From contig CAYYKL010000005.1 in assembly GCA_964441155.1 (NCBI GenBank), positions 4,434 to 68,433 of the forward strand: a DNA stretch of 64,000 nt, given 5' to 3'. The position numbers and the translations under genes are program-made. The notes under the pieces were generated by a model. That model worked only from the letters and a program-made list of their open reading frames with translations. It did no database searches and had not been told where the DNA came from. How positions within the stretch are numbered: position 1 is the stretch's first letter; every line of letters starts with the position of its first letter. Source of the DNA: an uncultured Pseudomonadales bacterium (GTDB lineage: Bacteria > Patescibacteriota > Microgenomatia > UBA1400 > RBG-16-45-19). Of this stretch, positions 3,623 to 38,986 are shown in pieces.

Positions 3623-3625
3623 AGT

Positions 3626-7831: not shown

Positions 7832-7859
7832 TTGTAATTGGTTAGATCAATTAGGTTAA

Positions 7860-7874: not shown

Positions 7875-7879
7875 ATTCT

Positions 7880-8425: not shown

Positions 8426-8496
8426 AGGGTGCTCCTGACATTAAAAATTACTTGAGCCAATTGTATCACCTAGTCAATGTTAGAAATCCCTGTGTT

Positions 8497-8557
8497 ACGC
8501 TTCGAGGTACTCCGAGAAGTTTCTCATAGTAAAGTTCTCACGTTACCTCTCGAACAT
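8497..8557. repeat. dispersed intergenic imperfect-palindrome repeat, copy E
   Basis: CTTCGAG..GAGAAGT..AGTTCTC..CTCGAAC. It occupies the tsf-frr spacer where pyrH usually sits. Confidence 0.55.
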
Positions 8558-11983: not shown

Positions 11984-12261
11984 CGAATACTACTCCCTAC
12001 ATGAATTCTGCCTCTATATTGCAACCAATCTCCTTCAGCATCACCCAAAGGCGAATCACCAAGTCTCAACTCATTACGAATTACATAGAAAGCTTCTGCT
12101 TCTGGATTCGCATTTGGACGATTACCGGCAATAACTCCGTCTAACGCAGCATCAAAGGCAAGCAAGGCAAAGACATACTCAGGGCGTTGGGAAGCAAAAT
12201 TGAGATATTGCTTGAATTCTTCTTCACTTGCTATCCATGTTGTGTTTAGTTGTTCTGACAT
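11980..12261 (-). CDS. hypothetical protein (93 aa), first gene of the HNH/PRTase operon
   Basis: ORF has a 4-nt overlap with the HNH gene start. No recognisable motif. Confidence 0.4.
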   Translation of the reverse strand: MSEQLNTTWIASEEEFKQYLNFASQRPEYVFALLAFDAALDGVIAGNRPNANPEAEAFYVIRNELRLGDSPLGDAEGDWLQYRGRIHVGSSIR

Positions 12262-12297
12262 GTTTGAGGATTGATTTATTGCATACCCAGTATTAGT

Positions 12298-12313
12298 ATT
12301 GATTCAAATCAAT
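12298..12313. promoter_or_regulatory. perfect 16-bp palindrome ATTGATTCAAATCAAT in the divergent intergenic region (putative operator of the XRE regulator)
   Basis: 7-bp arms ATTGATT/AATCAAT with a 2-bp spacer sit between the operon start (12261) and the regulator gene. A TACAAT -10-like hexamer lies at 12350-12355. Confidence 0.55.
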
Positions 12314-12356
12314 AGATAATTTGATTCATATATACTTTTTCATATTTACTACAATC

Positions 12357-12782
12357 ATGTCAACCATTGATCCAAATCAAACATCTGCCCAGAAGATCGG
12401 AGCCTATATCCGCTATCAACGGACAAAGCGTGACTATTCCATTGATGATCTTGCCAAAAAATGTGATTTAAATCCTTCTTTTATCTTCAGACTGGAAAAA
12501 GGTGCTTACGAAACCATTCGACTCAATGTGATTGAGAAGCTGGCAGCTGGACTTAAAATGTCAATCCAAAGCCTATTGTTTAAATCGCAAATCATCACAA
12601 CGAGCGATCACCTGCCTCGGTTGGAGTATTACCTCAAGGAAAAATACCAATTCTCTCCCGAGGTTATCGAAGAGGTTCGCACGTTTATAAACTTTATGCA
12701 TTTCAAGCATGACGAAGAAATTGCTCAACTCAAGCAACTCCACGAGGCATATTGGAACAGATCTGATTATTTAGAAGAATAA
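12357..12782 (+). CDS. XRE-family helix-turn-helix transcriptional regulator
   Basis: IRYQRTKRDYSIDDLAKKCDLNPSFIFRLEKG is a Cro/C1-type HTH. The ORF track extends to a TTG at 12321 with a hydrophobic, probably spurious, N-terminal extension. Confidence 0.7.
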   Translation: MSTIDPNQTSAQKIGAYIRYQRTKRDYSIDDLAKKCDLNPSFIFRLEKGAYETIRLNVIEKLAAGLKMSIQSLLFKSQIITTSDHLPRLEYYLKEKYQFSPEVIEEVRTFINFMHFKHDEEIAQLKQLHEAYWNRSDYLEE

Positions 12783-12809
12783 GTGTCGATCAATTTAAGA
12801 GAATTCAAT

Positions 12810-13703
12810 TTAGATCAATTGGGTGAGATTTTCAAGTAAGCATGCGACAGTAACCGGTCCTACGCCACTGGGCACAGGCGTGATAAAAGACGTTTTGGGC
12901 GCAACCGTTTCAAAATCCACATCTGCTCCAGGCGCGCCGACATCGATGACGATTGCTCCGGGCTTAACCATTTCGCCAGTGATGAGTTTTGATTTTCCCG
13001 TGGCCGAGATAATAAGGTCACTTGAGTTCAGGGTGCGAGAAAGCAAGTCAGGATCCATCGAAGTGCCCAATAAAGACACGTGTGCAGCCCCTTTGTGTTG
13101 CAACACCGCAGCCAACGGACGACCCACCAGCTCACTTCGACCGACAACACTGACATTTAGTTGAATTAGTTCAGGAATTGGCTGAGGAGCAGCGCTGGTC
13201 AATCTTTGCACGTCAACCTTTAGCGCCTCGGCTAAGATGTGCAGCACTGCTTTGACCGTGGCGGGGAGCAAAACCCAAGTTCCCTCATATACTTTGTTTA
13301 AATTTTTTCGAGTCAAGCAATCGACATCTTTGGCTGGGTCGATGGCTGAAGTCAGCTCCCTCCACCAATCGTCAAATCGCGCGGGGCTTTTGCCGGTTAT
13401 GTGCGCCCAAGAGCGTTTGCCTGGTTTTTGAATCATTACTCCGGTGACGTCTGAGCGCTTACTTGCAGAGCGAATGCTTGCTTGAATGAGCGAAACGGAA
13501 TCAGTGAGTGAGTGATCGATGCGGTCGAACTCAATACCCACCTGCACTGCGGCTTCGTGCTTGAGTCGAGTGTAGATCTGCGACGGTTCGTCTTCAGCAA
13601 AAACAACGCTCACCAAGCGCAATTTTGCATTTTTGTTGCTTTGCGTTAAAATACGCAACAGATGAGTAGCAAAAGCTGCGCCATCAAAAATGGTTGAGTT
13701 CAT
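12810..13703 (-). CDS. folD: bifunctional methylenetetrahydrofolate dehydrogenase/cyclohydrolase
   Basis: VGRSELVGRPLAAVL, DLIISATG, GAIVIDVG and TPVPSGVGPVTVACLL are FolD signatures. Confidence 0.8.
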   Translation of the reverse strand: MNSTIFDGAAFATHLLRILTQSNKNAKLRLVSVVFAEDEPSQIYTRLKHEAAVQVGIEFDRIDHSLTDSVSLIQASIRSASKRSDVTGVMIQKPGKRSWAHITGKSPARFDDWWRELTSAIDPAKDVDCLTRKNLNKVYEGTWVLLPATVKAVLHILAEALKVDVQRLTSAAPQPIPELIQLNVSVVGRSELVGRPLAAVLQHKGAAHVSLLGTSMDPDLLSRTLNSSDLIISATGKSKLITGEMVKPGAIVIDVGAPGADVDFETVAPKTSFITPVPSGVGPVTVACLLENLTQLI

Positions 13704-14108: not shown

Positions 14109-15299
14109 TTATCCCCTCGCCCACCAGCCCACTAACTTACTTGTAGATTTTTGTTTCTTCTTGCCACCAAATTTTGGCTTGGATTCCGTTTCTTGCCCAT
14201 GATGTTTGAAAACATCAGCTCGGTTGATCCCCCACAAAACCATATCACCGCTACCCACTTTGCCCCGCGTGTCGATGTCTGACAATTGCACTTCAAAACG
14301 CGTGAGATAAGGAAAAAGCAGGAAAATGCTCTGAGCTGCCATATGTAAGCGATCAATGTATAAATCAGAAAACATTTCTTTAAAGGTGTCGCGATAGAGC
14401 ACTCCCCGATTCACAAACAATTTTTGAAACCTCAAAGGTACATGGATGCGCTTATTGCCTTTGGTGAATCGGGAAAACTTATCCTCCAGTTGATCGACGC
14501 TAAAACCCAAATGCCACACAAATTTGGAGGAGCTCATTATCCAGGTTGAGCGGCAAACAAGCGAGTTGAGTAAGATATGCGGATCATCTTCCAGGGCATT
14601 CTTCTCAATGCCGTTCAAAAAACTTCTGCCCCCTACCCTGTCTCGCCCCACATGCATTTTGTCGGCGGCAACCAAAGCCCATTGCAAGGGCATGCCTTGC
14701 GTAAGGTCAGTGCCCAGTGCTTTAATGACCGGTTCTTCGTGAAACAGAATAGAATAGAGTGTTGCGTGCCAAGCGGATGAGTGAATATGCGTGTTTAAAA
14801 ACAAGCGAGTCATGAGCCAGGCTGAATAGGTAGAGTGATTATTGCGATCCATGAAGTTGCCCAAGTCATGCGTCATCCCTACCAAAGTCATTAAGAGTTC
14901 GCTCGTAGTGTCATAGTGCTCTTTCTCTCCGTCATACGAGAATCCTGAGCGCTGCAAGAGCTCGACACCAGTCTGTGCCACCCAAAGCGTATGGCGATCG
15001 GTGTGATCGTTGAACCCATGGGTCAGCTCCATGTCCAGCACCGGTCCGACATAATCCAGCGCTTGCCCTAAGCCTTGATAGAGATACCCAAGTGCCGCAC
15101 CGCGAGAACTTAATTTGAGATAGTGATTGAAGTCGAACACCGGCAGCACTTGAGGAATGCGATGTTTGGTGATGAAAGGAAAATGGTTCTTGTCGTAGGC
15201 TATGCCATATTCATCGAGGAATTGCCAAAAAGGCTTGCCATCGGCTCTGACAAATCGTTTCTTGGCGACAAAAGGAGATTTCCGATCAACGGTTTTCAT
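14109..15299 (-). CDS. HD-domain phosphohydrolase, dGTP triphosphohydrolase (Dgt)-like
   Basis: HTDRHTLWVAQTG (like R.THSLEVAQ) followed by GMTHDLGNF (HD.G) matches the His..HD layout of dNTP triphosphohydrolases; 396 aa. Confidence 0.55.
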   Translation of the reverse strand: MKTVDRKSPFVAKKRFVRADGKPFWQFLDEYGIAYDKNHFPFITKHRIPQVLPVFDFNHYLKLSSRGAALGYLYQGLGQALDYVGPVLDMELTHGFNDHTDRHTLWVAQTGVELLQRSGFSYDGEKEHYDTTSELLMTLVGMTHDLGNFMDRNNHSTYSAWLMTRLFLNTHIHSSAWHATLYSILFHEEPVIKALGTDLTQGMPLQWALVAADKMHVGRDRVGGRSFLNGIEKNALEDDPHILLNSLVCRSTWIMSSSKFVWHLGFSVDQLEDKFSRFTKGNKRIHVPLRFQKLFVNRGVLYRDTFKEMFSDLYIDRLHMAAQSIFLLFPYLTRFEVQLSDIDTRGKVGSGDMVLWGINRADVFKHHGQETESKPKFGGKKKQKSTSKLVGWWARG

Positions 15300-15322: not shown

Positions 15323-15946
15323 CTACGTGTTGTAAAAGTTTACGCGTTTTGACAATAACTCATCAAAGACATCAATGGCGCTTTTGTGCCTGAAGTGAGG
15401 AAATCGCCTGCCTTTAACTTCTCTTTCAATATATATATCATTATCGTGTTTGGAAAAAGTTGGTTTTACCATATCAGAATCAAGTGCGCCCAATGTATCC
15501 GCTTCCATAAGTGCAATTTCATCATCATTCACTAATTCCTCCACTCGATCATGCATATACACTAAATGTTTTATTCGCAAGATTTCTTCTGGAGCATATT
15601 GATCGGAAAATTGCTCATTTAGCAATGTCTCAATTTTATTAGCACCCGCCTCCATATGCCTTTCTTTTTTGGTGTGTATATCGGTCATATCAGTCACCCC
15701 ATCTTCAAAAAGTCCGATATATCCCCAATCATGTGCATACGCAGCAGTTACCAATATTTTAAAATTCAAATTCGATTCGTTATCAATAATATATTTTATC
15801 CAGTGAACAACAGCTTGTGTGTGAGGCTTATCAAAATCTGGCCGTCCTTTGTCGAGATCCGGCAAAATTATCCCACTAATTTGTTCTTCCCAGTTTTGAT
15901 TTGATTTATGCATGCGTCCTTTCCCACTGACGTTGAATTTCTTCAA
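15323..15946 (-). CDS. small HD-domain hydrolase (YfbR-like 5'-deoxynucleotidase candidate)
   Basis: HTQAVVHWIKYI ... AAYAHDWGY ... HLVYMHD..EADTLG; 207 aa. Confidence 0.5.
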   Translation of the reverse strand: MKKFNVSGKGRMHKSNQNWEEQISGIILPDLDKGRPDFDKPHTQAVVHWIKYIIDNESNLNFKILVTAAYAHDWGYIGLFEDGVTDMTDIHTKKERHMEAGANKIETLLNEQFSDQYAPEEILRIKHLVYMHDRVEELVNDDEIALMEADTLGALDSDMVKPTFSKHDNDIYIEREVKGRRFPHFRHKSAIDVFDELLSKRVNFYNT

Positions 15947-16946
15947 AAGTTAATGCATGGCTTGGAGTACGCACTTTTTCTTGAAGAATGTTAACAGCCA
16001 ATTCACGAATTCCTGCAGCATTTTCATCACTGTAACCATCAAATGCTGCACCAACAACACACTTAAACGCAAATGGTACATGAATTTCTTTTAATACGTC
16101 AGGCGAATCATAAGCCTCAATGAGTGCGCTAGCTCTTTCAAATGCTTGCTGCTCGCCACCTGCCAACCACCTAAGAATCTGATCACCCACTGCAAATCCC
16201 ACATCGTAGCCTCTCGGACCATACGCAACAGCATTATCAAATAAATGCACTCGACCCTCAGGTGTTACCGAAGTATTATCTCGCCATGCATCTCCATGAA
16301 TTCTTCTCACCTCGAGCGCTTGAATGCCATGCGTTGCAACACCAATCATTAGTTCTTGAATAGTAGTAAGTTGATCTGATAATGATGGCTCTCGATCTCT
16401 CAAATAATCAGCAACTTCATTAAATCTTTCTCTGCCATAAATAGGATGTAATGAGCCATAAATGCTCCAATCCCTTAGTTCAGCTGGAGTTAACTCTACC
16501 CTCCGCTCATGCATCTCACGAAGGTGTGTTCCAAGATTTTCATAGGCAATCAATGCTAACGATTGATCATCTTCATTAATTACTTGTGTCAACAACCTTG
16601 GAGAAGGGTTTACTTCGAGCAACATTGCTATTCCTGTCATCCTATCAGGAACCCCTGCAAGCAATGCATCCTTGAGTAAACTGTTTGGGTCAAATGGGAT
16701 ATTCCTGATTTCGCCTTTATCTGCAGTGAACAATCCCTCCAACGCCTCAACACCTGCCAATTGATATGCCCGCAAATAATCCGGAGTAACCGCTTTTGGA
16801 ACTCTAAGAAACTTATCTCCCTCATTTGTGCCCACAACACAACCACTTGAGCCATATCCCTCAAACACTTCGCTCTTCTGTGATAGTCTTAACCCGTCAA
16901 GCCAGAAATTTAAATCATTACTTGATTCTTTTACGACTCTAAACAT
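15906..16946 (-). CDS. phosphotransferase of the APH/choline-kinase fold
   Basis: IHGDAWRDN (HGD....N catalytic loop) and LFDNAVAYGPRGYDVG (D.. metal-binding) give a protein-kinase-like fold. It overlaps both neighbouring genes. Confidence 0.5.
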   Translation of the reverse strand: MFRVVKESSNDLNFWLDGLRLSQKSEVFEGYGSSGCVVGTNEGDKFLRVPKAVTPDYLRAYQLAGVEALEGLFTADKGEIRNIPFDPNSLLKDALLAGVPDRMTGIAMLLEVNPSPRLLTQVINEDDQSLALIAYENLGTHLREMHERRVELTPAELRDWSIYGSLHPIYGRERFNEVADYLRDREPSLSDQLTTIQELMIGVATHGIQALEVRRIHGDAWRDNTSVTPEGRVHLFDNAVAYGPRGYDVGFAVGDQILRWLAGGEQQAFERASALIEAYDSPDVLKEIHVPFAFKCVVGAAFDGYSDENAAGIRELAVNILQEKVRTPSHALTFEEIQRQWERTHA

Positions 16947-17584
16947 ACTTCAATACAATCAATAATTTTTTCTTTAAGCATTTTCGAATGTTCGTCATTA
17001 TGCACAAAATCACTCACTTCCGCTTCAGAAACTTCAACGATTGACGTGGTTCCTAAGTTAAGTTGCTTTATTAGTTCGTGAATACCTATTTCCAACTGCA
17101 TCAAATAGTCTTGCGTGTAGTATGCCAATTCATAATCCCGCCCACGCTCTTTTAATCGTTTAAGCAGCGTTGGCATTGAATAATTGAGGTGAATCACGGT
17201 CAGTTCGGACAAAAGATTTTTGGTGACTGAGTTGTAGACTTTTTCATAGAGTTCCCATTCGTCTTGAGAGATGTTGCCTACCGCCAAATGACTATAGGTG
17301 TAGACCCAACTCATTAAAAGCCCACTATCAATCACCAATGGTTTGCCTGAGTTCATGGCAATCGCTTGCTCAAGTAGTTCTGCCCTGCGCATTGTGAGCC
17401 AAAGCTCATTGGTCAAAGCCCAGCGCTTGGTATTTTGCAAATAGAGCTCGCGGAAAGGATCTTCGGTTTGAAACAGGGTGTCAGCGTCAAGAAAATCTGC
17501 ACCTAGTGCTTCGACAATCAATGGCGCGGCACTAGTCTTGCCCGACGCCACATTGCCGATGATAGTGATGATGTTAGAACGCAT
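16931..17584 (-). CDS. deoxynucleoside kinase family protein
   Basis: IITIIGNVASGKTS P-loop at the N-terminus; size and layout resemble dNK/dGK/dCK. The start is taken at MRSN (the ORF track extends to 17620). Confidence 0.55.
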   Translation of the reverse strand: MRSNIITIIGNVASGKTSAAPLIVEALGADFLDADTLFQTEDPFRELYLQNTKRWALTNELWLTMRRAELLEQAIAMNSGKPLVIDSGLLMSWVYTYSHLAVGNISQDEWELYEKVYNSVTKNLLSELTVIHLNYSMPTLLKRLKERGRDYELAYYTQDYLMQLEIGIHELIKQLNLGTTSIVEVSEAEVSDFVHNDEHSKMLKEKIIDCIEVCLES

Positions 17585-19037
17585 GCCCATTTCTTTCATG
17601 TTTAGGCCTAAACAATACATCTAGATATCTCAAAGTATAGTCTAAATTAGTTGGATCAACCAGAATTCCCAATCTAAATCCCCCATCAAAATCAATAGCT
17701 TCGAAACTTTCGCTGCCTTCCAAACCTTTGCATTTCAAATTGTCCAAGATTTCTCGAAAATATTTGCATGCATCATAAACAACTTGAGCCACTACTGGTT
17801 TTTTCACTTCCTCGCCTTTTTCGTTAATCACCTTTTTTTCCTTTAGTGCAAGCTGATCTAAGGTTAAAGATGCTTCTTGAATTTGATCTCTGCGAATCAC
17901 AAGCTCTAGCTGCATCCCTCCATTATCATCATCAAAATCTGAATTATCTTTTACCCTTATCACGAATTGCTCCATCTCTGGTTTAAGGGCGAATAAAGCT
18001 TGCGACATAACAAGCACGCGATCTTTCATTAGCTTAGCGTATAAACTTAACCACGATAACAGATGAGGAACTCCCTCGAATCGGTGAAGATTATGCAATT
18101 CATCTGTTAATTTTTTTCGTGTATTATTTCTTGAGTCTGTTATTCCCAAAATGTTTTTGAAGTGTTCATCCATTTGCCCGGGCTTAAAATTAAGCTCCAG
18201 CACTAAACCATCTTCCTCAGCAAGAAAAGCGGTTTCCTCAATCATTGCCGCAACTTGATAATGCTCATCAACATCGGTTAACAATTGCTCATTCTCTAAA
18301 TGATCACACTTTTTACTTGTAATCCGCTTTATCTCTACAGCATCAGCTTTATCACCAGCCAAAATTGCCAGAGAGGGTCTTCCAAAATATTTAAGCATCT
18401 CTGAGTATGCTTCATGAGGATTTGAGTTCTTCTCCCAAATTCGTTTCATATGAGCGGCTGCGAATTTTTCGTCGTGGAGGGCGATTCCTCTCAAGATTTG
18501 ACGTCGAACACCCGGCATTGTTTTAAGCTCAGGAACCAAGTGATCAATTATTTTTTTCGTGACAAATGGATGAGCTTTTCTGCTAACCAACATGCCAGCA
18601 TCATGCAAGTATCCTTGAACTATCGCAATTCTGATTTCTTCTTCTGACGCTCCAAGGCTAGTCAACAAATCAACCGCTTTACTTGTAACTTCTCTAACGT
18701 GCTCTATGCCATGCCGATTAAATCCGTTTGGATACGATTCATCATGTGACGTTTCCACCAAATCATAATATGGCGTTAATCTTTGATCTAATTGATCAAT
18801 CAATTCTAGTCTTGAAGAGCCAAAAATATCTATAGGCGCAAATTCTGGCTGCTTAAATCTTCCCTGTTCATCAAAAAATAATGAATATATTTGTTGTTTT
18901 CCCAGTACTTCTGGTAATTTCTTATCGTTCTCCTCATTGCCCGTATAATTAATTACCAATCCTTCAGCTTGAAAAAGCCGCATTCCCTGTTTGACAGTAT
19001 TTGCAAAATCTTGTGGTCGAAGTGTTTCAGCTGGCAT
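17574..19037 (-). CDS. HD-domain phosphohydrolase with N- and C-terminal extensions (487 aa)
   Basis: NRHGIEHVREVTSKAV ... GYLHDAGM ... ALHDEKF gives an H..H...HD.G HD signature. Confidence 0.55.
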   Translation of the reverse strand: MPAETLRPQDFANTVKQGMRLFQAEGLVINYTGNEENDKKLPEVLGKQQIYSLFFDEQGRFKQPEFAPIDIFGSSRLELIDQLDQRLTPYYDLVETSHDESYPNGFNRHGIEHVREVTSKAVDLLTSLGASEEEIRIAIVQGYLHDAGMLVSRKAHPFVTKKIIDHLVPELKTMPGVRRQILRGIALHDEKFAAAHMKRIWEKNSNPHEAYSEMLKYFGRPSLAILAGDKADAVEIKRITSKKCDHLENEQLLTDVDEHYQVAAMIEETAFLAEEDGLVLELNFKPGQMDEHFKNILGITDSRNNTRKKLTDELHNLHRFEGVPHLLSWLSLYAKLMKDRVLVMSQALFALKPEMEQFVIRVKDNSDFDDDNGGMQLELVIRRDQIQEASLTLDQLALKEKKVINEKGEEVKKPVVAQVVYDACKYFREILDNLKCKGLEGSESFEAIDFDGGFRLGILVDPTNLDYTLRYLDVLFRPKHERNGHAF

Positions 19038-24980: not shown

Positions 24981-26600
24981 TTACAAATTCCCAAATTTTG
25001 ATCGATAGAGCTTGTCGATGTGTCGCTTGGCTGTATCCACCGTGGTAAACAGAGGCACATTTTCGTCAATCGCCTTAGCTCGAATTCGTTTGCCATCCGT
25101 ACCCTCAGTTTTGTCAGAGACTGATGTAGGCACACATACCACCAGATCAAATCGTCGCTCATCCAGTAGGTTGGACAAGTTGGGCGATTCATTCTCGTGA
25201 ATTTTGTAAACGAGAAAGTTGGTTATTCCTTGTTCAAGCAAGTAGTGATGCGTGTTTTGGGTGGCGAAAATTTGGAAACCCAATTCTTGCAGCTGCCCAG
25301 CACTCTCAAGCATTTTCTTTTTGTTTTCGGTTTTGCCGATAGACAGCAGTGCACTTTTTTCGCCACGCTGTTGGGCAAGGCGCATTTGCATCGAATAGAC
25401 TTCAATGAAAGGTGCTGCCGTCATCACATTAAAGGGCGCAGCTTTCGCGTTTGTGTTATCGAACGACACATGATGTAGACCATGTGGAGAGGTGAGTGCA
25501 ACCACGGTTGCATGCCCTTTAAATAATTGAACTTTAACCACACCGTCCACTTTTTCATTAATTTTGTCGTTGTAGGCTCTCATATCATCCATCGCGGGGT
25601 CATACCAGAGAGCGCCATAGGTTAAGTAGCCAAACTTGATGTCCATGGTTTCTTTAAGTTCGTTTTCAAGACGAGTGCACACGTATTTCTCCAAGTTTTT
25701 GTGCGCTTTGATGATGATGTGCGCTCCAGGATGCTCGTAAATCCCGCGAGTTTTTAATCCAACCAACCGATCTTCAACGTGATACTCGACTCCTACGCCA
25801 TGTTTGCCGCCGATTTTGTTGAGCTGCATAATAAGCTCGCTAAGGGGGAGTGTTTTGCCATTAAGTTTTTTCGGAATCCCCCGAGCAAACTCAAGCTCCA
25901 CCATTTCTGCCTTGTCGGGCGTTTTATCAATCGTTCTGCAAGCAGTCAAAAACTTTTCAATTGGCGGCACCAATGAGGGATCTTCAATCTCGCCACCTTC
26001 CCAGGTCATTCCCCACATATTATCATCATCGCTGTAGGGGAAATCTTTGCGCACGCGGACAGGAATTTTGTGTTTCAGCGCATAGTCGATTTGCTCATCG
26101 CGACTCATGTTCCACTCACGCACAGGAGCAATAATTTTCATAGCCGGATTCAGGGTCAACACACTGCCGTCCAGGCGCACTTGATCGTTGCCCTTGCCAG
26201 TGCACCCGTGGGCCACGGTGTCAGCATTTTCGCGCGCGGCAATCACTATTGCCCATTTGGCCATAAGATAGCGGCTAACCGTGGAAATGTAGTAATTGCC
26301 CTGATAGGCCGCATTGGCTTTGATCATGTGAGAAAGGTAGTCGGCAGCGAATTCTTGCTTGGCATCGATGACATAGGCTTTGACCGCCCCCAGCTTAAGT
26401 GCCTTTGCTTTAATCGCTTCGAGATCATCACCTTGTTGCCCCAGGTCAAGTGTCAGGGCTATTACTTCTGCCTGGTATTTGTCTTGTAACCACTTGAGCA
26501 TCATGCTGGTATCTAATCCTCCGGAATACAAAAGCACCACTTTTTTAATTTCGCCTTCGCGGGCTTCGTAGCTTGAGACTTTGGTGTAAACGGTTTGCAT
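24981..26600 (-). CDS. argG: argininosuccinate synthase fused to a C-terminal MGS-like (methylglyoxal synthase-like) domain
   Basis: VVLLYSGGLDTS PP-loop and HGCTGKGNDQVRLD match ArgG. A C-terminal domain of about 130 aa (ALLSIGKTENKK..GFQIFATQNTHHYL..LVVCVPT) resembles the CarB/PurH MGS-like fold. Confidence 0.7.
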   Translation of the reverse strand: MQTVYTKVSSYEAREGEIKKVVLLYSGGLDTSMMLKWLQDKYQAEVIALTLDLGQQGDDLEAIKAKALKLGAVKAYVIDAKQEFAADYLSHMIKANAAYQGNYYISTVSRYLMAKWAIVIAARENADTVAHGCTGKGNDQVRLDGSVLTLNPAMKIIAPVREWNMSRDEQIDYALKHKIPVRVRKDFPYSDDDNMWGMTWEGGEIEDPSLVPPIEKFLTACRTIDKTPDKAEMVELEFARGIPKKLNGKTLPLSELIMQLNKIGGKHGVGVEYHVEDRLVGLKTRGIYEHPGAHIIIKAHKNLEKYVCTRLENELKETMDIKFGYLTYGALWYDPAMDDMRAYNDKINEKVDGVVKVQLFKGHATVVALTSPHGLHHVSFDNTNAKAAPFNVMTAAPFIEVYSMQMRLAQQRGEKSALLSIGKTENKKKMLESAGQLQELGFQIFATQNTHHYLLEQGITNFLVYKIHENESPNLSNLLDERRFDLVVCVPTSVSDKTEGTDGKRIRAKAIDENVPLFTTVDTAKRHIDKLYRSKFGNL

Positions 26601-26833: not shown

Positions 26834-27088
26834 CTAATAATGATATCGACAGGCAATTATAACTACTACATCTTGTTTAACTTGATAAACCAACCGATGT
26901 TCACTATCAATTCGTCTGGACCAACACCCGTGCAAATTGGCTTTAAGCAACTCTGGTTTCCCTGAGCCAACAAAAGGGTTTTTTGCTGTTTCTTTAATAA
27001 GTGTGTTGATACGTCTCAATTGTTTCTTGTCGGTTGTAAGCCAGTATTGATAGTCACCCCAAGCACGAGGAGTAAAAAGAATATTCAT
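26834..27088 (-). CDS. yoeB: YoeB-family toxin (mRNA interferase)
   Basis: FTPRAWGDYQYW..DKKQLRRINTLIKE..NPFVGSGKPELLKANLHGCWSRRIDSEHRLVY..IIACRYHY. Confidence 0.85.
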   Translation of the reverse strand: MNILFTPRAWGDYQYWLTTDKKQLRRINTLIKETAKNPFVGSGKPELLKANLHGCWSRRIDSEHRLVYQVKQDVVVIIACRYHY

Positions 27089-27097
27089 GCTATAGCA

Positions 27098-27352
27098 CTA
27101 CACTTCAATCAACTTCTTTCGTAATATATTGACTTCACGAACTTGTGCAAGCGACTCAAGAAGATGTTTTTTGTTTGCTTCACTGACTAATAAATAATTC
27201 GTTTCTTGCCAAGCATTGAAGTCGTCAATCGACACCATCACCACATTTTCGCGGTTTTTGCGCGTAACAATTAAGGGCTCCCGATTTTGAAAGACTGAGT
27301 CCATGTGACGTTTGAGATTTTTTCTGAGGTCAGAGTACGTAATTGCGTTCAT
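27098..27352 (-). CDS. yefM: YefM/Phd-family antitoxin
   Basis: MNAITYSDLRKNLKRHMDSV..EPLIVTRKNRENVVMVSIDDFNAWQETNYLL. It lies 10 nt upstream of yoeB. Confidence 0.8.
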   Translation of the reverse strand: MNAITYSDLRKNLKRHMDSVFQNREPLIVTRKNRENVVMVSIDDFNAWQETNYLLVSEANKKHLLESLAQVREVNILRKKLIEV

Positions 27353-27362
27353 AATTACGTAC
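27335..27362. promoter_or_regulatory. palindrome GTACGTAATT-N8-AATTACGTAC spanning the yefM start codon, plus tandem TTGTACG repeats (putative YefM-YoeB operator)
   Basis: 10-bp perfect inverted arms. The TGTAC core recalls characterised yefM operators. A TTGACC-17-TATATT promoter lies immediately upstream on the minus strand (about 27360-27395). Confidence 0.5.
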
Positions 27363-27407
27363 AATATAGCGTACAATTGCTATGTGGTCAATGTGTCGTG
27401 CGAGGAT

Positions 27408-28040
27408 TTAAAGTATCCGTGTCTCAATGGTCTGCCAAATAGCTTCTGCAACAGCATCAAGATCAACGCTCGCATCAATTACCACCCACCGGTTGTGATC
27501 GTTTGATTTAGCCAGACTCAGATAGGCATCTCGCACTTTTTGGTGAAAAGTTTTAGTTTCCATATCCAGGCGATTCGATTCGCCCGTATCGTTGCGGCGT
27601 TTCAAGCCCAAATCAACCGGCACATCCAGAAGCAAGGTTAAATCGGGATAGGTATTATTCGTGGAAATATTGTTGAGATTTTCGATAAGCTCCACCCCAA
27701 AATCGCGCACAATGCCTTGATACACAACCGATGAATCGCGGGTCCTGTCCATAAGCACCACTTTGCCGGCTTTTATGGAAGGCAGCACCAATTCTCGATA
27801 GAGTTGTGCTCGAGCTGCTTGGAATAGCAATACTTCGGCAGTGTAGGCAATGCCGATATTTTTTGCTGAGAGCACCACTTCACGGATTTGTTCCGAGATT
27901 ACCGTGCCACCAGGCTCGCGCACAATCACCACATCGGATCCTGCTTGCGTCAATTTGTCCCGCAAGCGCTTAGTTTGCAGGGTTTTTCCCGCACCCTCTC
28001 CGCCTTCGAATGAAATAAGATAGCCTTTTTGTGTCTTCAT
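27408..28040 (-). CDS. tmk: thymidylate kinase
   Basis: ISFEGGEGAGKT P-loop, REPGGT, and DRTRDSSVVYQG lid. The start is taken at MKTQKG. Confidence 0.85.
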   Translation of the reverse strand: MKTQKGYLISFEGGEGAGKTLQTKRLRDKLTQAGSDVVIVREPGGTVISEQIREVVLSAKNIGIAYTAEVLLFQAARAQLYRELVLPSIKAGKVVLMDRTRDSSVVYQGIVRDFGVELIENLNNISTNNTYPDLTLLLDVPVDLGLKRRNDTGESNRLDMETKTFHQKVRDAYLSLAKSNDHNRWVVIDASVDLDAVAEAIWQTIETRIL

Positions 28041-28096
28041 GAGCGTAATAAAGTGTAACCAAAGAATGCACAAATACCAAGGGCAAATTTTGTTAC

Positions 28097-28660
28097 TTAA
28101 GCAGCGTGCAGTTGACTATAACATTCTTCGCAACTCGCGCCATACAACTCTGCACCGCCCACCACCACTTGTCCCTTCTGTTTTTGTTTGCGATAGCTAA
28201 ACGGCGCTTGTGAAGAGCAACCATCACAACGGGCAAAATGGTGCGTGACTCTACCTCCCTGCTTGTTGGCAATTTCGATCAATTTCAGCGTCGGACCAAA
28301 GGGTTGGCGATGATAATCGAGGTCCAAACCCGCCACGACCACTTTAATGTTTTGAAGATTTAAAGCTTCGATCGTTTGAATAATTGAAGCATCGAAAAAT
28401 TGCACTTCATCGATGAGCGCAACACTCTCGCCATTCAATTTTTCCAACATCTCATTTGGATTGGATTCGTCGACAAATGTGGCTGGAATTCGGGAGCGAT
28501 TGTGACTAATAACTTCCCCATCATCACTAAAGCGCGTATCTAGCTTTGGCTTAAAACAGACTACTGAAACGTTTTGTTGTAAACATTTTTTATATGCCCG
28601 AATCAGCGCGGTCGTCTTACCGCTAAACATTGGTCCGAAGTGAATTGCAAGATTTTTCAT
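28097..28660 (-). CDS. tdk: thymidine kinase
   Basis: GPMFSGKTT, IDEVQFF, and a CDGCSS..CEEC zinc ribbon. Confidence 0.85.
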   Translation of the reverse strand: MKNLAIHFGPMFSGKTTALIRAYKKCLQQNVSVVCFKPKLDTRFSDDGEVISHNRSRIPATFVDESNPNEMLEKLNGESVALIDEVQFFDASIIQTIEALNLQNIKVVVAGLDLDYHRQPFGPTLKLIEIANKQGGRVTHHFARCDGCSSQAPFSYRKQKQKGQVVVGGAELYGASCEECYSQLHAA

Positions 28661-28741
28661 AATCTAAATGAGAGCTGTAATTATTGATTATTGATTTCAC
28701 CTTTTCAATGTAAAAGTTAAGCAGCTGTAGCTCTACCCCCG

Positions 28742-28770
28742 TGACATTATCCCTAATAATCTTGTAAAAT
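28742..28770 (+). promoter_or_regulatory. putative sigma70-type promoter TGACAT-17-TAAAAT directly upstream of the NDT-like gene (near-leaderless)
   Basis: Hexamer spacing is 17 nt and the -10 ends 8 nt before ATG at 28778. No SD sequence is visible. Confidence 0.35.
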
Positions 28771-28777
28771 ACACTTT

Positions 28778-29710
28778 ATGAAAGCATTTATAGCATTGAG
28801 TTTCAAGGATCGAGAAGAGCTAGATTCGGCTATAACACAAATTGAAAATGCATTAAAGAAATTTGGGTATAACGAGGTTGAAGTATTCGTACGGAGACAG
28901 ACAAGTTCATTGGTTTCAAGTCAAGAAATTATGCAAGCGGCGCTACAGCACATTACAGAGAGCCAGCTTGTTGTTGCAGAAATTTCTCACAAAGCAGTTG
29001 GCATTGGAATTGAAGTTGGTCATGCATATGCAAGGCATATTCCAATAATTGGAATTAGACGAGCAGGATCAGTATTATCAACTACTCTCGAGGGAGTATT
29101 AGCAGCCCCTGTCATCGAATATTCCTCAGAAGAAGAAATTCCACACTTGCTTTCGGATGCAATTCAAAGTCTATCTGAATCTAATCAAGAAATAAGGCTT
29201 AAAGAATTAAATACTCACGAACTAGCATTACTTGACTACGTTTTGGATTCATCCCGCTCGTTACTCTTCGAGTTTAATAAAACGACTCATTCCAAACCAA
29301 GTTTTAACATATCCGATCTTACAAATGAAAAAGAAGAAGAAGGTAAGTTATTAGTATTGGCTCGAGAATTTTGCTATGGCCTTAATATGGGGGGAAATGA
29401 TACGCAATTAAGATTTTGGAGACTACTCACATCCGACCTCCCGCCTCTAGAAACAATTAATGAAATTGATCAAATTGGATTATCCCGAGGTGAATCTCCT
29501 TTTCAAATCGCATTAATGTCTGTTCAATTAGCTCTTGGTGAGAGGATGAGAAATCAATACCCTAATCAACAAGAATTGCTCGAGGGAACTGCTGAGATCT
29601 ATAGCTGGCTCTGGAATTCAGAAACGCCCCGAATAAAAATTGATAATGAAGTAAGATTTTTAGAAAGTATTCGAGAGAAAAGCTTAAGCGATCGATCCCG
29701 CAGAATTTAA
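28778..29710 (+). CDS. nucleoside 2-deoxyribosyltransferase-like (NDT/Rcl/DNPH1-fold) N-terminal domain fused to an uncharacterised C-terminal domain of about 190 aa
   Basis: N-terminus MKAFIALSFKD... and VVAEISHKAVGIGIEVGHAYARHIPIIGI match the NDT-family catalytic E.G.A.A...P(V/I)I segment. Confidence 0.55.
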   Translation: MKAFIALSFKDREELDSAITQIENALKKFGYNEVEVFVRRQTSSLVSSQEIMQAALQHITESQLVVAEISHKAVGIGIEVGHAYARHIPIIGIRRAGSVLSTTLEGVLAAPVIEYSSEEEIPHLLSDAIQSLSESNQEIRLKELNTHELALLDYVLDSSRSLLFEFNKTTHSKPSFNISDLTNEKEEEGKLLVLAREFCYGLNMGGNDTQLRFWRLLTSDLPPLETINEIDQIGLSRGESPFQIALMSVQLALGERMRNQYPNQQELLEGTAEIYSWLWNSETPRIKIDNEVRFLESIREKSLSDRSRRI

Positions 29711-29741
29711 ACTATTTCCAAACAAATATTGCACATTATAT

Positions 29742-31361
29742 GTGTATAAGGTACAATACCGCGGTATTTATTATAGGTTTCTTATGGCTGCAGAAATTGT
29801 GATCGCTCAAGAAGCTAACATCTATTCAAAGTCTGATAGGTATTCGGGTCTCCTACCTGATTATTACACCAATCTTGAAAGGTTTATAGGAGATTCAGAT
29901 AGATCAAAATGGCTATCCCTAAGAAAGGGTTATGATCATTTAGCATTACCCTATCACGAAGGTCCATATGACTTGGTAGTGGTGAATACTCCATCTTCAT
30001 ATGAGCAGGGTGCTGTACCCACAAAAGAAGAACCACCTTTTGGAGCAATCAGATGCGTGGCTACTGCTAATTCAGCCGGGTTGATAGCGGGTTTACTCGA
30101 TGCTCATGCACTTAATATGGATTTAGAGCAAATTCGAGCGCAGCTTGAACTTTTGCAGCCTAGAATTGTCGGTATAAACCCCACATCAGTTAATGTTGCT
30201 GTAGGAAAAGCTTTGGCAAAATTGCTTGATGAAATGAGAGTTGACTATGTTGTGGGAGGTATTCATGCAACCATGGACCCTGCCAGAGCACGCGCTGATT
30301 TTCGATCAGCATACGCCATAATCAAGGGTGACGGTGAATTGGCATTACCCGCAGTTGTTAGACACGCAAAAGATGGTACTTCAATCACTGCTGGAACATT
30401 TTTGAGGAATCAAGATCTTACTCTAAGTTTGTATTTGCCCTATGCACCCAAAATTGATATCGGTGAGTTACCGATAATACCCCAAGAAAAATACGTGCAA
30501 TATCCCCTCGTTGAACAAATAATCGATTTTCGCGGGGAACCCAGAAAAGTCTTAGAAGCTAGTTCCTACATGACTAGAGGATGTCCTTTTGAATGTGGAT
30601 TCTGCTCTTCGCCAGTAATGGTTGGTAGAGGCCTCAAAGGAGTGCGTCCTTATGATCACCCGGGAATGAGCAAAGTTGTTGATGAAGTAGAAAGATTAAT
30701 AGGAATTGGTGCAGATGCCATTCATTTTCTGGATGATATGGTGATGGTTAAACCTGCAGATATTGAAGCATTTCATGATATTGCAGAACAAAGAGGAATT
30801 CTTGGAAAATTCGCGTGGCGTGGCATGACTCGTGCCCCAGTTGTCTCAAGAAATACATTCACCCCTGAAATAACTGGGAAATTAGCTGAAAGTGGCTGCT
30901 GGCGAATGACGCTAGGTGTAGAAAGCGGCAATGACCAAGTACTAGCAGCAATCAAAAAACAAATAACCACTAATGACGTTAGAGAAGCTGTCAGAAAGCT
31001 TGTGGGTGCGGGAATACAAGTAAAGGCTTTTTTCATTATGGGTTTTCCAGGGGAAACATATGAGCAAATGCTTGACACCAACAGGTTTGTCATGGAGCTG
31101 AAAAAGATGGGTTTAGGAAGTATCTCTATTTTCCAATTTAAACCATATCCAGGAACTATGTTGTGGGAAAAAATTGAGAAAGAAAACCCTGATGCATTAA
31201 CGCATCTTGACTACATTGGTGGAGATGCCCGTAGTGAAGTCGGTGGCAAAAGAGGTATTCAAGGTGTTTATTTGCCTGATGATTTGGTGATCGCGGATGG
31301 AGTGTCTAGCGGCAGAGTAAGAGAACTTGTTCAAACAACATTAGCAGATTTTTTTAGCTAA
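29742..31361 (+). CDS. cobalamin-binding (class B) radical SAM enzyme
   Basis: YMTRGCPFECGFCSS (CxxxCxxC) is preceded by a Rossmann-like B12-binding region of about 250 aa. An alternative start at MAAEIV (29784) is possible. Confidence 0.7.
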   Translation: MYKVQYRGIYYRFLMAAEIVIAQEANIYSKSDRYSGLLPDYYTNLERFIGDSDRSKWLSLRKGYDHLALPYHEGPYDLVVVNTPSSYEQGAVPTKEEPPFGAIRCVATANSAGLIAGLLDAHALNMDLEQIRAQLELLQPRIVGINPTSVNVAVGKALAKLLDEMRVDYVVGGIHATMDPARARADFRSAYAIIKGDGELALPAVVRHAKDGTSITAGTFLRNQDLTLSLYLPYAPKIDIGELPIIPQEKYVQYPLVEQIIDFRGEPRKVLEASSYMTRGCPFECGFCSSPVMVGRGLKGVRPYDHPGMSKVVDEVERLIGIGADAIHFLDDMVMVKPADIEAFHDIAEQRGILGKFAWRGMTRAPVVSRNTFTPEITGKLAESGCWRMTLGVESGNDQVLAAIKKQITTNDVREAVRKLVGAGIQVKAFFIMGFPGETYEQMLDTNRFVMELKKMGLGSISIFQFKPYPGTMLWEKIEKENPDALTHLDYIGGDARSEVGGKRGIQGVYLPDDLVIADGVSSGRVRELVQTTLADFFS

Positions 31362-31366
31362 ATCCT

Positions 31367-31999
31367 ATGAGTGGCATTGCGCTTGTATCTGGAATCAATT
31401 CTGTAGGCAAAGGTGAAGTATGTAGAATATTAGCTAGATTGATTCCGAATTCTCGACATTTAAGTCTATCAGGATTGATGAAAGATCTTGGTGCTCTTGA
31501 TGGTCACCATTCTCTTGGCAGCATGGGAATAGAGGAAAGAAATATTTTAAGGCGAAATGCACTGGATTTAGTAAGAACAGCAAGTGAAAATCATTCTGTG
31601 CTTTTAGATTCTCATTTTGTGTTTGAAGATGGGGAAAGATCAGATTTCTCAAGAATAAGAAGTGCTACCGCCCAAATCGTTTTAGTCGGATCTTCTCCAC
31701 AAACAATTCGCAGTAGGCTATCTTATGATCCAGAAATAAATCAAAGGCCAGCCAGGATTGCACTATTAGGTTTTACTGATCAAGAAATTACCGATTACAT
31801 TTGCGCAGACGAAAGAGAGGCAAAGATTTTTGCATCACTTCAGAATCCAACTATACCTCTTGTTCGAATAGATAACGATTTCCCTTCTATTCCCATGCTT
31901 GAAGACTATCTGACACAAATATCTCCAGAGTTGCTAGACAACTTTCACCGACCCTCCAATGAGGGTATTGAGGGCCCACCCAGACTATTGAGAAGATGA
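31367..31999 (+). CDS. P-loop kinase-like protein with atypical Walker A (GINSVGKGE)
   Basis: IALVSGINSVGKGEVCRILARL near the N-terminus. 210 aa, the size range of nucleoside and nucleotide kinases. Assignment is weak. Confidence 0.35.
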   Translation: MSGIALVSGINSVGKGEVCRILARLIPNSRHLSLSGLMKDLGALDGHHSLGSMGIEERNILRRNALDLVRTASENHSVLLDSHFVFEDGERSDFSRIRSATAQIVLVGSSPQTIRSRLSYDPEINQRPARIALLGFTDQEITDYICADEREAKIFASLQNPTIPLVRIDNDFPSIPMLEDYLTQISPELLDNFHRPSNEGIEGPPRLLRR

Positions 32000-38407: not shown

Positions 38408-38986
38408 TCAAGGAATAAACAGAGCTGGGGCAAATAAGGCGAGAGCAATCGCAATGCCAAGGAAAACCTGGAACACCGTATGCTGTTTGTCAATGATCCG
38501 GGCTAAACCGACAACGAGTGGGATCCAGGCAAGCGCATAACCCCATGGACCCAAGCGCCAAATGGCAATTAGTACCAGAATCGTGTTCACGCCCGCGTGG
38601 ATACTCACCTTCATGAATCGCGTGAGCAGGGCGTAGGTCAAAAGCACAAGCCAAAGGAGCGTCAATTGATACGCCAAGGGGAATAATTGCCACCAATAGG
38701 AGGCAGCAACGCCAAAAAGATGAATAATGATAATGTCACGAAACAAAGGCAAGCGCAGTTCGCGCCTCGATATATCCGGATCGTTGATTCGCTTAGTAGA
38801 AAGCATCCAAAAATAAATTAATCCCGGCAATCCCAGATAAACCATGATTAATAATCCAAACTGAACTAAGCTCACTTCAGCTTGGAGATATGCAGCACCG
38901 ATGGTGCTCAAAAAAATTATAGGGATGACAATGAGGGGGTCAAAAATGTTGGAAAGAACTTGGGCAACTTTTCGCATACCAATCAT
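38408..38986 (-). CDS. integral membrane protein (possible PAP2-like phosphatase)
   Basis: 192 aa with six hydrophobic helices. KVSIHAG and RIIDKQHT weakly resemble PAP2 motifs. Confidence 0.35.
   Translation of the reverse strand: MIGMRKVAQVLSNIFDPLIVIPIIFLSTIGAAYLQAEVSLVQFGLLIMVYLGLPGLIYFWMLSTKRINDPDISRRELRLPLFRDIIIIHLFGVAASYWWQLFPLAYQLTLLWLVLLTYALLTRFMKVSIHAGVNTILVLIAIWRLGPWGYALAWIPLVVGLARIIDKQHTVFQVFLGIAIALALFAPALFIP

Follow-up and report, generated by a model that had tools for sequence, protein, structure and literature searches.

A Patescibacteria-restricted radical SAM family linked to nucleotide hydrolases: a possible nucleotide-tailoring system

What might three closely spaced genes of a patescibacterial genome do, when they encode an Rcl/DNPH1-like protein (gene A), a class B radical SAM (rSAM) enzyme (gene B) and a P-loop kinase-like protein (gene C)? 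The original prediction had them turn a (deoxy)nucleoside or nucleotide into a modified one, and pointed to the neighbouring thymidine and thymidylate kinases. An ORF check of the window (the whole 64 kb stretch of DNA analysed here) found all three on the plus strand, co-directional and head to head with tdk and tmk as described (Table 1); the start proposed for the feature, 28742, falls upstream of the gene A reading frame. Gene B follows gene A after 73 nt, or after 31 nt with a GTG start. Promoter-like sites occur between tdk and gene A on the plus strand (28741-28770, GTGACA-18-TAAAAT) and the minus strand (28714-28680), no more often than in shuffled sequence, so this is at best a plausible promoter region.

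Table 1. Features of the cassette and its immediate surroundings, in window coordinates
Feature	Position	Strand	Remarks
tmk, thymidylate kinase	27408-28073	-	PF02223, 148.3 bits; context
tdk, thymidine kinase	28097-28660	-	PF00265, 134.8 bits; divergent from gene A
Divergent intergenic region, tdk / gene A	28661..28777	.	117 nt; promoter-like hexamers on both strands
Gene A	28778-29710	+	310 aa; Rcl/DNPH1/NDT-fold N-terminal domain plus C-terminal extension
Gene A, N-terminal Rcl/DNPH1/NDT-fold domain	~residues 1-117 (28778-29128)	+	
Gene A, C-terminal extension, all-alpha	~residues 118-310 (roughly 190 aa)	+	
Gene A, conserved active-site segment VVAEISHKAVGIGIEVGHA	28970-29026	+	includes putative nucleophile Glu79
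Gene B, class B radical SAM	29784-31361	+	525 aa (P0001); founding member of the family
Gene B, B12-binding Rossmann domain, Pfam-matched part	30078..30356	+	residues 113-205 of the 539-aa ORF
Gene B, CxxxCxxC [4Fe-4S]/SAM motif CPFECGFC	30582-30605	+	radical SAM core
Gene C, P-loop kinase-like (AAA_17)	31367-31999	+	210 aa; begins 5 nt after gene B
Gene C, atypical Walker A GINSVGKGE	31391-31417	+	Gly at the Ser/Thr position after Lys

The larger nucleotide neighbourhood that had been described is there as well: genes for FolD, dNK, three PRTases, a PNP/UDP phosphorylase, OMP decarboxylase, UPRT and DHODH lie at ~10.4-24 kb of the window, and the organism leans heavily on salvage genes. The adjacency to tdk and tmk, however, is lineage-specific. 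In a neighbourhood comparison of 27 lineages, tdk adjoins the rSAM gene in no lineage other than that of the window, and GC content is 0.40 in the cassette versus 0.44-0.47 in tdk-tmk; the cassette looks compositionally foreign. An identical cassette (three proteins, 100% identity) is found on contigs of at least three independent sequencing runs.

Gene B is a class B enzyme, with CxxxCxxC in a radical SAM core and an N-terminal PF02310 domain; the ORF listing starts it at GTG 29742 (a 539-aa ORF), while gene callers take ATG 29784. The earlier B12-binding and radical SAM calls survive both profile and fold searches, and both Pfam scores exceed their cut-offs (PF02310, 35.0 versus 32.1 bits; PF04055, 80.7 versus 29.5 bits). 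Invariant motifs of the B12-binding domain are D106, GxNPxS, GGxH and GxG. Across 31 family members the three CxxxCxxC cysteines are invariant, and no further Cys is conserved beyond these cluster ligands. The AF2 model (pLDDT 83.3, pTM 0.84) has MgmA, AprD4, OxsB, TsrM and TokK as its top Foldseek matches and superposes on TokK, OxsB, TsrM and MgmA; neither the profile search nor the model revealed a domain for binding RNA or DNA anywhere in its 525 aa.

The enzyme was also expected to lie outside characterised families with unrelated substrates, and it does. The subfamilies compared include PhpK, HpnJ, BchE, MgmA, BzaD, HpnR, AprD4 and the TsrM type, and gene B reaches no NCBIfam curated cut-off, the best score being 96.4 versus 251 bits (TIGR04013; PhpK, 89 versus 600; BchE, 78 versus 481; MgmA, 72 versus 360; AprD4, 45.9 versus 500). 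MgmA (QCMT) and AprD4 share its two-domain architecture of a Rossmann domain and a partial TIM barrel (Foldseek E 2.4e-17 and 1.5e-16, respectively), but are only 16-19% identical to it, and their contexts, MCR maturation and aminoglycoside biosynthesis, are entirely unlike that of the cassette. AprD4, which together with MgmA is the nearest structure solved, has a B12-type domain but lacks cobalamin, and we therefore go no further than to say that gene B probably uses cobalamin. The cofactor is plausibly available to carriers: one lineage (L014) encodes NrdR and the class II, B12-dependent RNR NrdJ ~4.4 kb downstream, and another (L005) has a PduO-type adenosyltransferase nearby.

The rSAM family is sharply bounded and rare even within Patescibacteria. 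It comprises ~96 clusters, after which the bit score falls from 224 to 93; all its named members are Patescibacteria, and none was found in IMG/VR. No description of the cassette was found in the searchable literature. The carriers are a small group of ultra-small (CPR) bacteria. Their rSAM enzyme is uncharacterised, and the genes that accompany it point to an undescribed pathway that may make or handle an unusual DNA or RNA building block.

The main evidence on function comes from what accompanies the rSAM gene in the 27 lineages, which are distinct at 90% identity. A nucleotide hydrolase is directly adjacent in 22 and within three genes in 23, whereas an identical scan of 91 class B rSAM loci outside the family found an adjacent hydrolase at one. 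The hydrolases are of several types (Rcl-like in 17 lineages, Maf in five, MazG in two, Ham1 in two, Nudix in one), with NTPase_I-T in a single lineage, L143; several junctions have gaps of just 1-5 nt or overlap. Searching in reverse, from the Rcl-like relatives P0121 and P0123, recovers an adjoining rSAM gene. Five lineages (L006, L021, L062, L068 and L143) have an NTP pyrophosphatase together with an Rcl-like protein, a pairing that would fit sequential processing from NTP to NMP to base and sugar phosphate. Four or five lack a hydrolase nearby (L009, L015, L065 and L076, plus P0096, a divergent locus).

Roughly a third to 40% of the lineages have an NMP-kinase-like gene nearby, likewise of varying type: Tmk (the window, and L065 at 37.5 bits), Cmk-like (L005, L141, L021), ADK-like (L007), AAA_28 (L009), NDK (L011), a gene C homologue (L012) and, named from a sequence motif only, Gmk-like (L061). 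The nearest outgroup clade (26-27% identity, NJ support 65/100) has the gene order rSAM, UDG-superfamily protein, then Tmk or MazG, with Tmk scoring 87-88 bits in L026 and L058. The conserved unit is therefore the rSAM gene with one of several interchangeable nucleotide hydrolases. Conserved co-occurrence, on which the original prediction depended, applies to this two-gene core; the three-gene set occurs only in the window's own lineage.

For the Rcl-like partner, fold and profile searches favour the NDT/Rcl assignment, with its flavodoxin-like fold, although the PF05014 score of gene A is just short of its cut-off (residues 16-98, 28.2 versus 28.8 bits). The C-terminal domain, previously called unique, is an all-alpha extension absent from Rcl, DNPH1 and NDT, and the two-domain form is common to ~10 clusters at 50% identity. 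The segment VVAEISHKAVGIGIEVGHA, which includes the E.G.A motif noted earlier, aligns with Rcl VVAEVTQPSLGVGYELGRA. E79 is invariant in three subfamily alignments and takes the position of the nucleophilic Glu (E93 of Rcl, in GYELG; E98 of NDT); G75 and A83 are also invariant, while conservation of G81 is complete in some alignments and almost complete in others. The other two members of the Rcl catalytic triad, Asp and Tyr, have no counterpart: the D69 position (D80 in DNPH1) is a nearly invariant Ala, Ala55, and Tyr13 (Y7 in NDT) aligns with Phe4 in a comparison with rat Rcl whose D69 position was cross-checked against PDB alignments. The top-scoring PDB chains against gene A are themselves mutants with A or N at the D69 site, the best being a D69A chain. 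The GSIRGG phosphate loop is absent; S101 and T103, invariant in the subfamily, align with the 5'-phosphate-binding region at Rcl S117, and where Rcl has S87 most members also have Ser but gene A of the window has Ala. As gene A keeps just one residue of the Rcl catalytic triad, the cleavage or exchange of a base on deoxyribose predicted for gene A is not secure, and the Rcl-like partner may be a non-glycosidase.

Gene C passes the cut-off of AAA_17 (PF13207, 38.9 versus 27 bits), a generic family, and has no PDB relative or NCBIfam match. The GINSVGKGE motif behind its kinase assignment is present but degenerate, GKG failing GxxxxGK[ST]. Just one homologue turned up at the rSAM-family loci examined; it immediately follows the rSAM gene in L012, shares 32% identity with gene C and has a canonical GKTT.

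A nucleotide-directed function, with OxsB as nearest analogue, was proposed at the outset and is made reasonable by the linkage counts. OxsB is the B12-dependent radical SAM enzyme of oxetanocin A biosynthesis (PMC12931638). Like the cassette, the OxsB/OxsA pair sets a class B rSAM enzyme beside a nucleotide hydrolase, and by analogy the two systems may share a nucleotide substrate and cooperation of rSAM enzyme and hydrolase. In work of 2017 attributed to Bridwell-Rabb, OxsB reportedly acts on deoxyadenosine phosphates with the phosphohydrolase OxsA. Gene B has OxsB as one of its best structural matches (Foldseek E 9e-15; 5ul2 by profile, 38.5 bits, E 4.4e-09; TM-score normalised to target 0.42), but OxsB ranks below MgmA and AprD4, is ~16% identical and is not an orthologue; it has an extra N-terminal domain and a helix bundle that gene B lacks (744 versus 525 aa). 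OxsA is an HD-domain phosphohydrolase whereas the rSAM family is paired with Rcl-like, Maf, MazG or Ham1 proteins, and no HD-domain neighbour was found at any rSAM-family locus examined. OxsB belongs to an antibiotic cluster on a Bacillus plasmid, the cassette to CPR chromosomes. On identity, domains and partner, membership of gene B in the OxsB family was rejected.

We tentatively favour, at a little short of even confidence, the reading that the cassette is the local form of a modular, Patescibacteria-restricted nucleotide-tailoring system whose invariant part is the class B rSAM enzyme, possibly acting in OxsB/OxsA-like fashion by C-methylation of a pyrimidine deoxynucleotide. What the analysis shows directly is which genes are present, their assigned domains and folds, where the family ends, and a linkage to nucleotide enzymes that is both specific and recurrent. 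In the proposed scheme a 5'-deoxyadenosyl radical derived from SAM at the [4Fe-4S] cluster, probably with cobalamin, would alter a (deoxy)nucleoside phosphate, most likely by such a C-methylation. The hydrolase (of Rcl/DNPH1 fold in the window; Maf, MazG, Ham1 or NTPase_I-T elsewhere) would process the non-canonical product, either freeing the end product or barring it from the polymerase substrate pool, and may also present substrate to the rSAM enzyme, in the manner of OxsA with OxsB. Where found, P-loop kinase-like proteins would feed or re-phosphorylate the nucleotide. We infer the free-nucleotide substrate, the kind of reaction, the sequence of events and the use of cobalamin. The Ala and Phe residues of the Rcl-like partner, the degenerate Walker A and the lineages with no hydrolase count against such tailoring. 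Maf and MazG prefer pyrimidines, and Ham1 and NTPase_I-T prefer ITP/XTP, so a single defined product is hard to name. The UDG and HhH-GPD glycosylase-type neighbours are just as compatible with repair or with a polymer, DNA, as substrate.

The partners could instead serve sanitation or repair, the rSAM enzyme reversing or processing bases, in DNA or among free nucleotides, that are damaged or foreign (e.g. by alkylation or deamination), as one clean-up task shared with house-cleaning enzymes grouped around it in salvage-dependent cells such as that of the window. Every partner family is of house-cleaning type (Maf, MazG, Ham1, NTPase_I-T, Nudix and DNPH1-like, the last named 5-hydroxymethyl-dUMP N-hydrolase in PDB entries), DNA glycosylase-superfamily neighbours occur (UDG in the sister clade, HhH-GPD in L063), and several loci of the family adjoin DNA-metabolism genes such as topA/dprA and gyrAB. 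We nevertheless consider it unlikely: a general clean-up need would be widespread rather than confined to so rare a family, the cassette looks foreign, and we know of no class B rSAM enzyme that performs repair or demodification.

Quite unlikely, too, is a modification of tRNA, rRNA or genomic DNA after synthesis, with hydrolases barring re-incorporation of the turnover nucleotides. Maf and DNPH1 are known to take as substrates the nucleotides that modified RNA or DNA gives rise to, as PDB names also suggest, and the glycosylase-type neighbours bind DNA; to our knowledge, however, no class B rSAM enzyme acts on nucleic acid, gene B lacks a nucleic acid-binding domain, and the neighbouring NMP/NDP kinases suit free nucleotides better. 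For DNA modification by a radical SAM enzyme, gp53 of phage M6 provides a precedent, but gp53 is SPL-like and not of B12 type (PMC8989533).

Replacement of a core enzyme, by a radical SAM ribonucleotide 2'-dehydratase/reductase or a B12-dependent thymidylate synthase, appears very improbable. Its product could be distributed and phosphorylated by the NDT-like protein, tdk, tmk and dNK; the partners and neighbours lean to thymidine and deoxynucleotides (Rcl/NDT fold, tdk, Tmk in three contexts, UDG), AprD4, so close in structure, is a radical diol dehydratase, and no ThyA, ThyX or RNR was found among ~50 window ORFs tested, which span just 64 kb of the genome. Against it, a family of such rarity and patchy distribution can hardly be essential, the NrdR and NrdJ of L014 argue against a replacement ribonucleotide reductase, gene B has neither a conserved Cys beyond the cluster ligands nor a reductase partner, the cassette GC is atypical and the NCBIfam AprD4 score is low. 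Mere clustering of nucleotide genes, to which the unusually dense island in the window and the unconserved tdk-tmk adjacency might lend themselves, is strongly disfavoured by hydrolase adjacency that recurs in otherwise unrelated contexts.

Two further systems resemble the proposed tailoring module. Viperins and pVips with a CMPK2-type kinase likewise link an rSAM enzyme to a nucleotide kinase and have a patchy, accessory distribution, but they are not B12-domain enzymes, have no sequence relationship to gene B beyond the rSAM core and, unlike the cassette, lack hydrolase partners. PADLOC gave no significant match for any component, only the rSAM protein against PDC-M51A (E 0.0013, 15.6 bits). 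Phage pre- and post-replicative DNA hypermodification pathways (dNTP pyrophosphatase, dNMP-modifying enzyme, dNMP kinase) have with it a common logic of NTP pyrophosphatase, modifying enzyme and kinase, and some rSAM-family loci likewise have a thymidylate-kinase-type enzyme and glycosylase-fold proteins; the cassette, however, lacks a ThyA-like hydroxymethylase, its rSAM enzyme is class B rather than SPL-like as gp53 is, and PHROG gave no informative match, none being to phage hypermodification enzymes (5-HMUDK, aGPT-Pplase). With no viral contigs either, identity with a phage thymidine hypermodification cluster was rejected.

The DNA hypermodification precursor or antiviral analogue originally envisaged is speculation, given the PADLOC and PHROG results and the lack of viral copies. 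One specific form of nucleotide tailoring, decidedly a long shot, would have the rSAM enzyme C-alkylate a pyrimidine deoxynucleotide (e.g. dTMP to 5-ethyl-dUMP) or add a C-methyl to the sugar. The product might be re-phosphorylated and incorporated, as a cellular, pre-replicative DNA hypermodification in some CPR bacteria, or might be a chain-terminating antiviral or anti-host nucleotide, with the house-cleaning hydrolase as self-immunity. Either fate would make this the second nucleotide-directed B12-radical SAM reaction known, after that of OxsB, and would add a new nucleotide chemistry to the bacterial radiation that is understood least.

The open reading frames of the cassette stand as the original prediction described them, three co-directional and tightly spaced genes, of which gene A encodes an Rcl/DNPH1-like protein, gene B a class B radical SAM (rSAM) enzyme and gene C a P-loop kinase-like protein. 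The gaps (73 nt between A and B, or 31 nt with the GTG start; 5 nt between B and C) are compatible with a single transcription unit, and a 117 nt spacer separates gene A from the divergent tdk. The identical cassette occurs on contigs of at least three sequencing runs. Promoters and terminators in a scan were no more numerous than shuffled expectation, and scanning the window for Rfam families and tRNAs gave no match.

Features of the window, with coordinates in the whole stretch
Feature	Coordinates	Strand	Remarks
ORF in island	14109-15299	-	396 aa; no Pfam match
ORF in island	15323-15946	-	207 aa; no Pfam match
APH/fructosamine-kinase-like gene	15906-16946
ORF in island	17574-19037	-	487 aa; no Pfam match
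argG-like gene	24981-26600	-	argininosuccinate-synthase-type protein with C-terminal MGS-like domain
Toxin-antitoxin pair	26834-27376	-	YoeB/YefM type
tmk	27408-28073	-	unambiguous
tdk	28097-28660	-	unambiguous
Gene A	28778-29710	+	310 aa; PF05014 28.2 bits, just under cut-off of 28.8
Gene B	29784-31361	+	ATG start; 525 aa, P0001 in public gene calls; ORF listing starts at GTG 29742
CPFECGFC motif, gene B	30582-30605	+
Gene C	31367-31999	+	210 aa; AAA_17 (generic P-loop family) 38.9 bits
ORF between mreB and mreC	38408-38986	-	192 aa; no Pfam match

By its ribosomal protein S2 the organism belongs to the Microgenomates group of Patescibacteria, with the best named relatives 63–66% identical. 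The left flank of the cassette is a dense nucleotide-metabolism island (FolD, dNK, three phosphoribosyltransferases, PNP/UDP phosphorylase, OMP decarboxylase, UPRT, DHODH and an amidohydrolase). The GC content of the cassette (28778-31999) is 0.401, second-lowest among 304 sliding 3.2-kb windows (mean 0.44, sd 0.018), and that of the flanking tdk, tmk and topA is 0.44–0.47, a hint that the cassette entered the tdk-topA interval by transfer or insertion.

Several other features of the window deserve mention. The three island ORFs that lack a Pfam match neighbor a deoxynucleoside kinase and the APH/fructosamine-kinase-like gene. The MGS-like domain, of the type that serves carbamoyl-phosphate synthase as its allosteric domain, forms an unusual fusion in the argG-like gene, within a pyrimidine gene run, and the toxin-antitoxin pair lies between this gene and tmk. 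The closely related strain L002 has an extra HEPN/nucleotidyltransferase pair (3605-4293) between tdk and tmk, and the genes upstream differ from those of the window (DDAH, OTCase/ATCase). The mreB-mreC interval, occupied here by a 192-aa ORF, holds maf or radC in some bacteria.

Both domains of gene B score above cut-off (PF02310, 35.0 bits; PF04055, 80.7 bits). A word-indexed search found 96 family clusters (E < 1e-60, 33–78% identity), below which scores fall sharply from 224 to 93 bits; named sources are all Patescibacteria (Levybacteria, Dojkabacteria, Curtissbacteria, Saccharibacteria and Microgenomates). NCBIfam models all score far below their cut-offs (best TIGR04013, 96 versus 251). 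An AlphaFold model from 31 members is confident (pLDDT 83.3, pTM 0.84), and the structures closest to it, MgmA, AprD4, OxsB, TsrM and TokK, are only 15–19% identical, a placement with which the sequence profile agrees. The sole conserved cysteines are the three of the cluster. The score gap, the lack of a matching NCBIfam model, the remoteness of the structural matches and the cysteine pattern mark a new, well-bounded class B subfamily. It appears to be undescribed, the searchable literature having yielded no description of the family or of the cassette, and is a good experimental target. Some public MAG records of carriers are titled ‘Gammaproteobacteria’, ‘Pseudomonadales’ or ‘Micrarchaeota’ (L010, L012, L017, L019, L022; L011, L013, L015), probably automatic mislabels. 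At two loci the family rSAM is split in two ORFs or fragmentary (L022, 6304-7375; L076, about 5001-5630); these may be pseudogenes or assembly frameshifts.

Family loci were collected from exact-protein look-ups, GTDB genomes and JGI metagenomes, ORFs were called, neighbors were labeled by phmmer against Pfam-verified exemplars, and loci were collapsed at 90% rSAM identity into 27 lineages. A nucleotide hydrolase directly adjoins the rSAM gene in 22 of the 27 and lies at most three genes away in 23, versus an adjoining hydrolase at 1 of 91 loci that hold other class B rSAMs and were treated by the same procedure. The neighbor is Rcl-like in 17 lineages, Maf in five, MazG-like in two, Ham1 in two, and Nudix and NTPase_I-T in one each; an NTP pyrophosphatase and an Rcl-like gene occur together in five. 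Several junctions with the rSAM gene are 1–5 nt or overlapping, and when the search was reversed, starting from the Rcl-like relatives P0121 and P0123, a family rSAM again adjoined. The linkage is absent from P0096 at the family edge (33% identity), and the next outgroup protein inspected lies in a sugar-biosynthesis cluster. About a third to 40% of lineages also carry a P-loop kinase-like gene, of mixed type: a gene C homologue (L012), Tmk (the window and L065), Cmk-like, ADK-like, AAA_28, NDK, Gmk-like (L061, so called on its motif alone) and an AAA_17-like protein of 404 aa. The conserved unit is thus the rSAM with a nucleotide hydrolase. Conservation of the neighborhood, proposed as a check, is borne out for this core in 22 of the 27 lineages, and the original interpretation is supported in part; the three-gene set and its adjacency to tdk-tmk are not conserved.

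Individual loci vary. At L143 (1826-5963) the NTPase_I-T gene (PF01931) is divergent from the rSAM, beyond which lie two Rcl-like paralogues in tandem, both of two domains (246 and 320 aa). At a single locus, recovered on two contigs (L068 1-4716, L063 2088-6190), a family rSAM stands within a large cluster. Besides an Rcl-like protein, a QueE-like rSAM and QueD (PTPS), this cluster encodes two Ham1 paralogues, a pair of SAM methyltransferases, a P-loop protein of 282 aa, a 269-aa protein whose only matches are unknown PHROGs, a glycosylase of the HhH-GPD type and an ASCH protein; it resembles a gene cluster for 7-deazapurines or modified nucleotides. Outgroup locus L146 (5001-9317) has three tandem B12-binding rSAM genes in a sugar-nucleotide/glycosyltransferase cluster.

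The subfamily profile of the N-terminal domain of protein A is nearest Rcl/DNPH1 (5e-08), then NDT (2e-03), and the nucleophile Glu (E79) is invariant, as is an S-T-T segment aligned to the phosphate-binding Ser117. PF05014 falls just short of its cut-off, the catalytic Asp of Rcl is a near-invariant Ala, and Tyr13 is replaced by Phe. The top PDB chains are themselves Asp-to-Ala and Asp-to-Asn mutants. Given these substitutions, protein A may be an altered-chemistry glycosidase or chiefly a nucleotide-binding partner. An exhaustive representative search gave 232 relatives (a full-length word-based search returned only protein A). The C-terminal 190 residues, predicted all-helical and initially called unique, are unusual, yet about ten other two-domain relatives show weak conservation there. 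Gene C had been proposed to re-phosphorylate the product; with a Walker A of GKG rather than GK[ST], it is doubtful whether the protein works as a kinase in this genome (the L012 homologue has GKTT).

A few ‘outgroup’ loci with nucleotide neighbors form the clade nearest the family (26–27% identity), the bipartition uniting the two receiving moderate bootstrap support (65/100) in a rough neighbor-joining analysis with saturated distances. Members are Anabaena UHCC 0204, a Flavobacterium MAG and gut ‘Alphaproteobacteria’ MAGs (L024, L025, L026, L058; about 6000-8500 in each). Here the gene order is rSAM, UDG-superfamily protein (50–64 bits; divergent motif A, WVG[LVI]S not GEAPG), then a genuine thymidylate kinase (87–88 bits) or MazG, a module of which we found no published description. 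This gene content argues that the nucleotide/DNA theme is older than the CPR family, and the theme leans to uracil and thymine deoxynucleotides.

The reading that asks for the fewest assumptions is a modular system for nucleotide tailoring, with a mechanism that we infer. The rSAM would alter a (deoxy)nucleoside phosphate, the non-canonical product would be handled by a hydrolase of whichever family is at hand, and kinases would be optional feeders. Class B enzymes number more than 220,000 (PMC12931638). Only a few dozen have a known reaction, the majority of those characterized being methylases, and methylation is favored here solely on that prior. Tmk, tdk, Maf, MazG, UDG and DNPH1-like partners favor a pyrimidine deoxynucleotide as substrate, while Ham1 and NTPase_I-T partners and the QueD/QueE locus disfavor a preference for one base. 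To our knowledge OxsB alone among class B rSAMs acts on a nucleotide, reportedly in partnership with the phosphohydrolase OxsA. This pair is the closest known analogue in logic (OxsB is reviewed in PMC12931638); gene B failed the test for OxsB family membership.

The strongest rival to nucleotide tailoring is sanitation or repair, all partners being classical house-cleaning enzymes; next comes a polymer substrate, RNA or DNA. Replacement of thymidylate synthase is unlikely for a rare family in a cassette of atypical GC. Replacement of ribonucleotide reductase was rejected as the main reading: the family is rare, has no extra conserved Cys, and at L014 coexists with NrdR and class II NrdJ. In that Curtissbacteria MAG, NrdR and then the B12-dependent reductase (about 11306-13385; L066 10306-11386) lie about 4.4 kb downstream from the paired rSAM and Rcl-like genes, which shows that this CPR genome uses cobalamin. 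A known defence system (no meaningful PADLOC match) and phage origin or hypermodification (weak NDT matches only in PHROGs, no family member in IMG/VR) were likewise rejected; gp53 of phage M6 is an rSAM of another type.

The family is sharply bounded, with unusually clear genomic evidence of a nucleotide-linked role, and nature supplies partner combinations for testing (Rcl-like, Maf, MazG, Ham1, NTPase_I-T and several kinases). That contigs of cyanobacteria and of gut MAGs carry the related rSAM-UDG-Tmk module suggests a theme wider than CPR. CPR bacteria subsist largely on salvaged nucleotides, and for the management of their nucleotide pools the family may expose either a non-canonical nucleotide or a sanitation route that is new.
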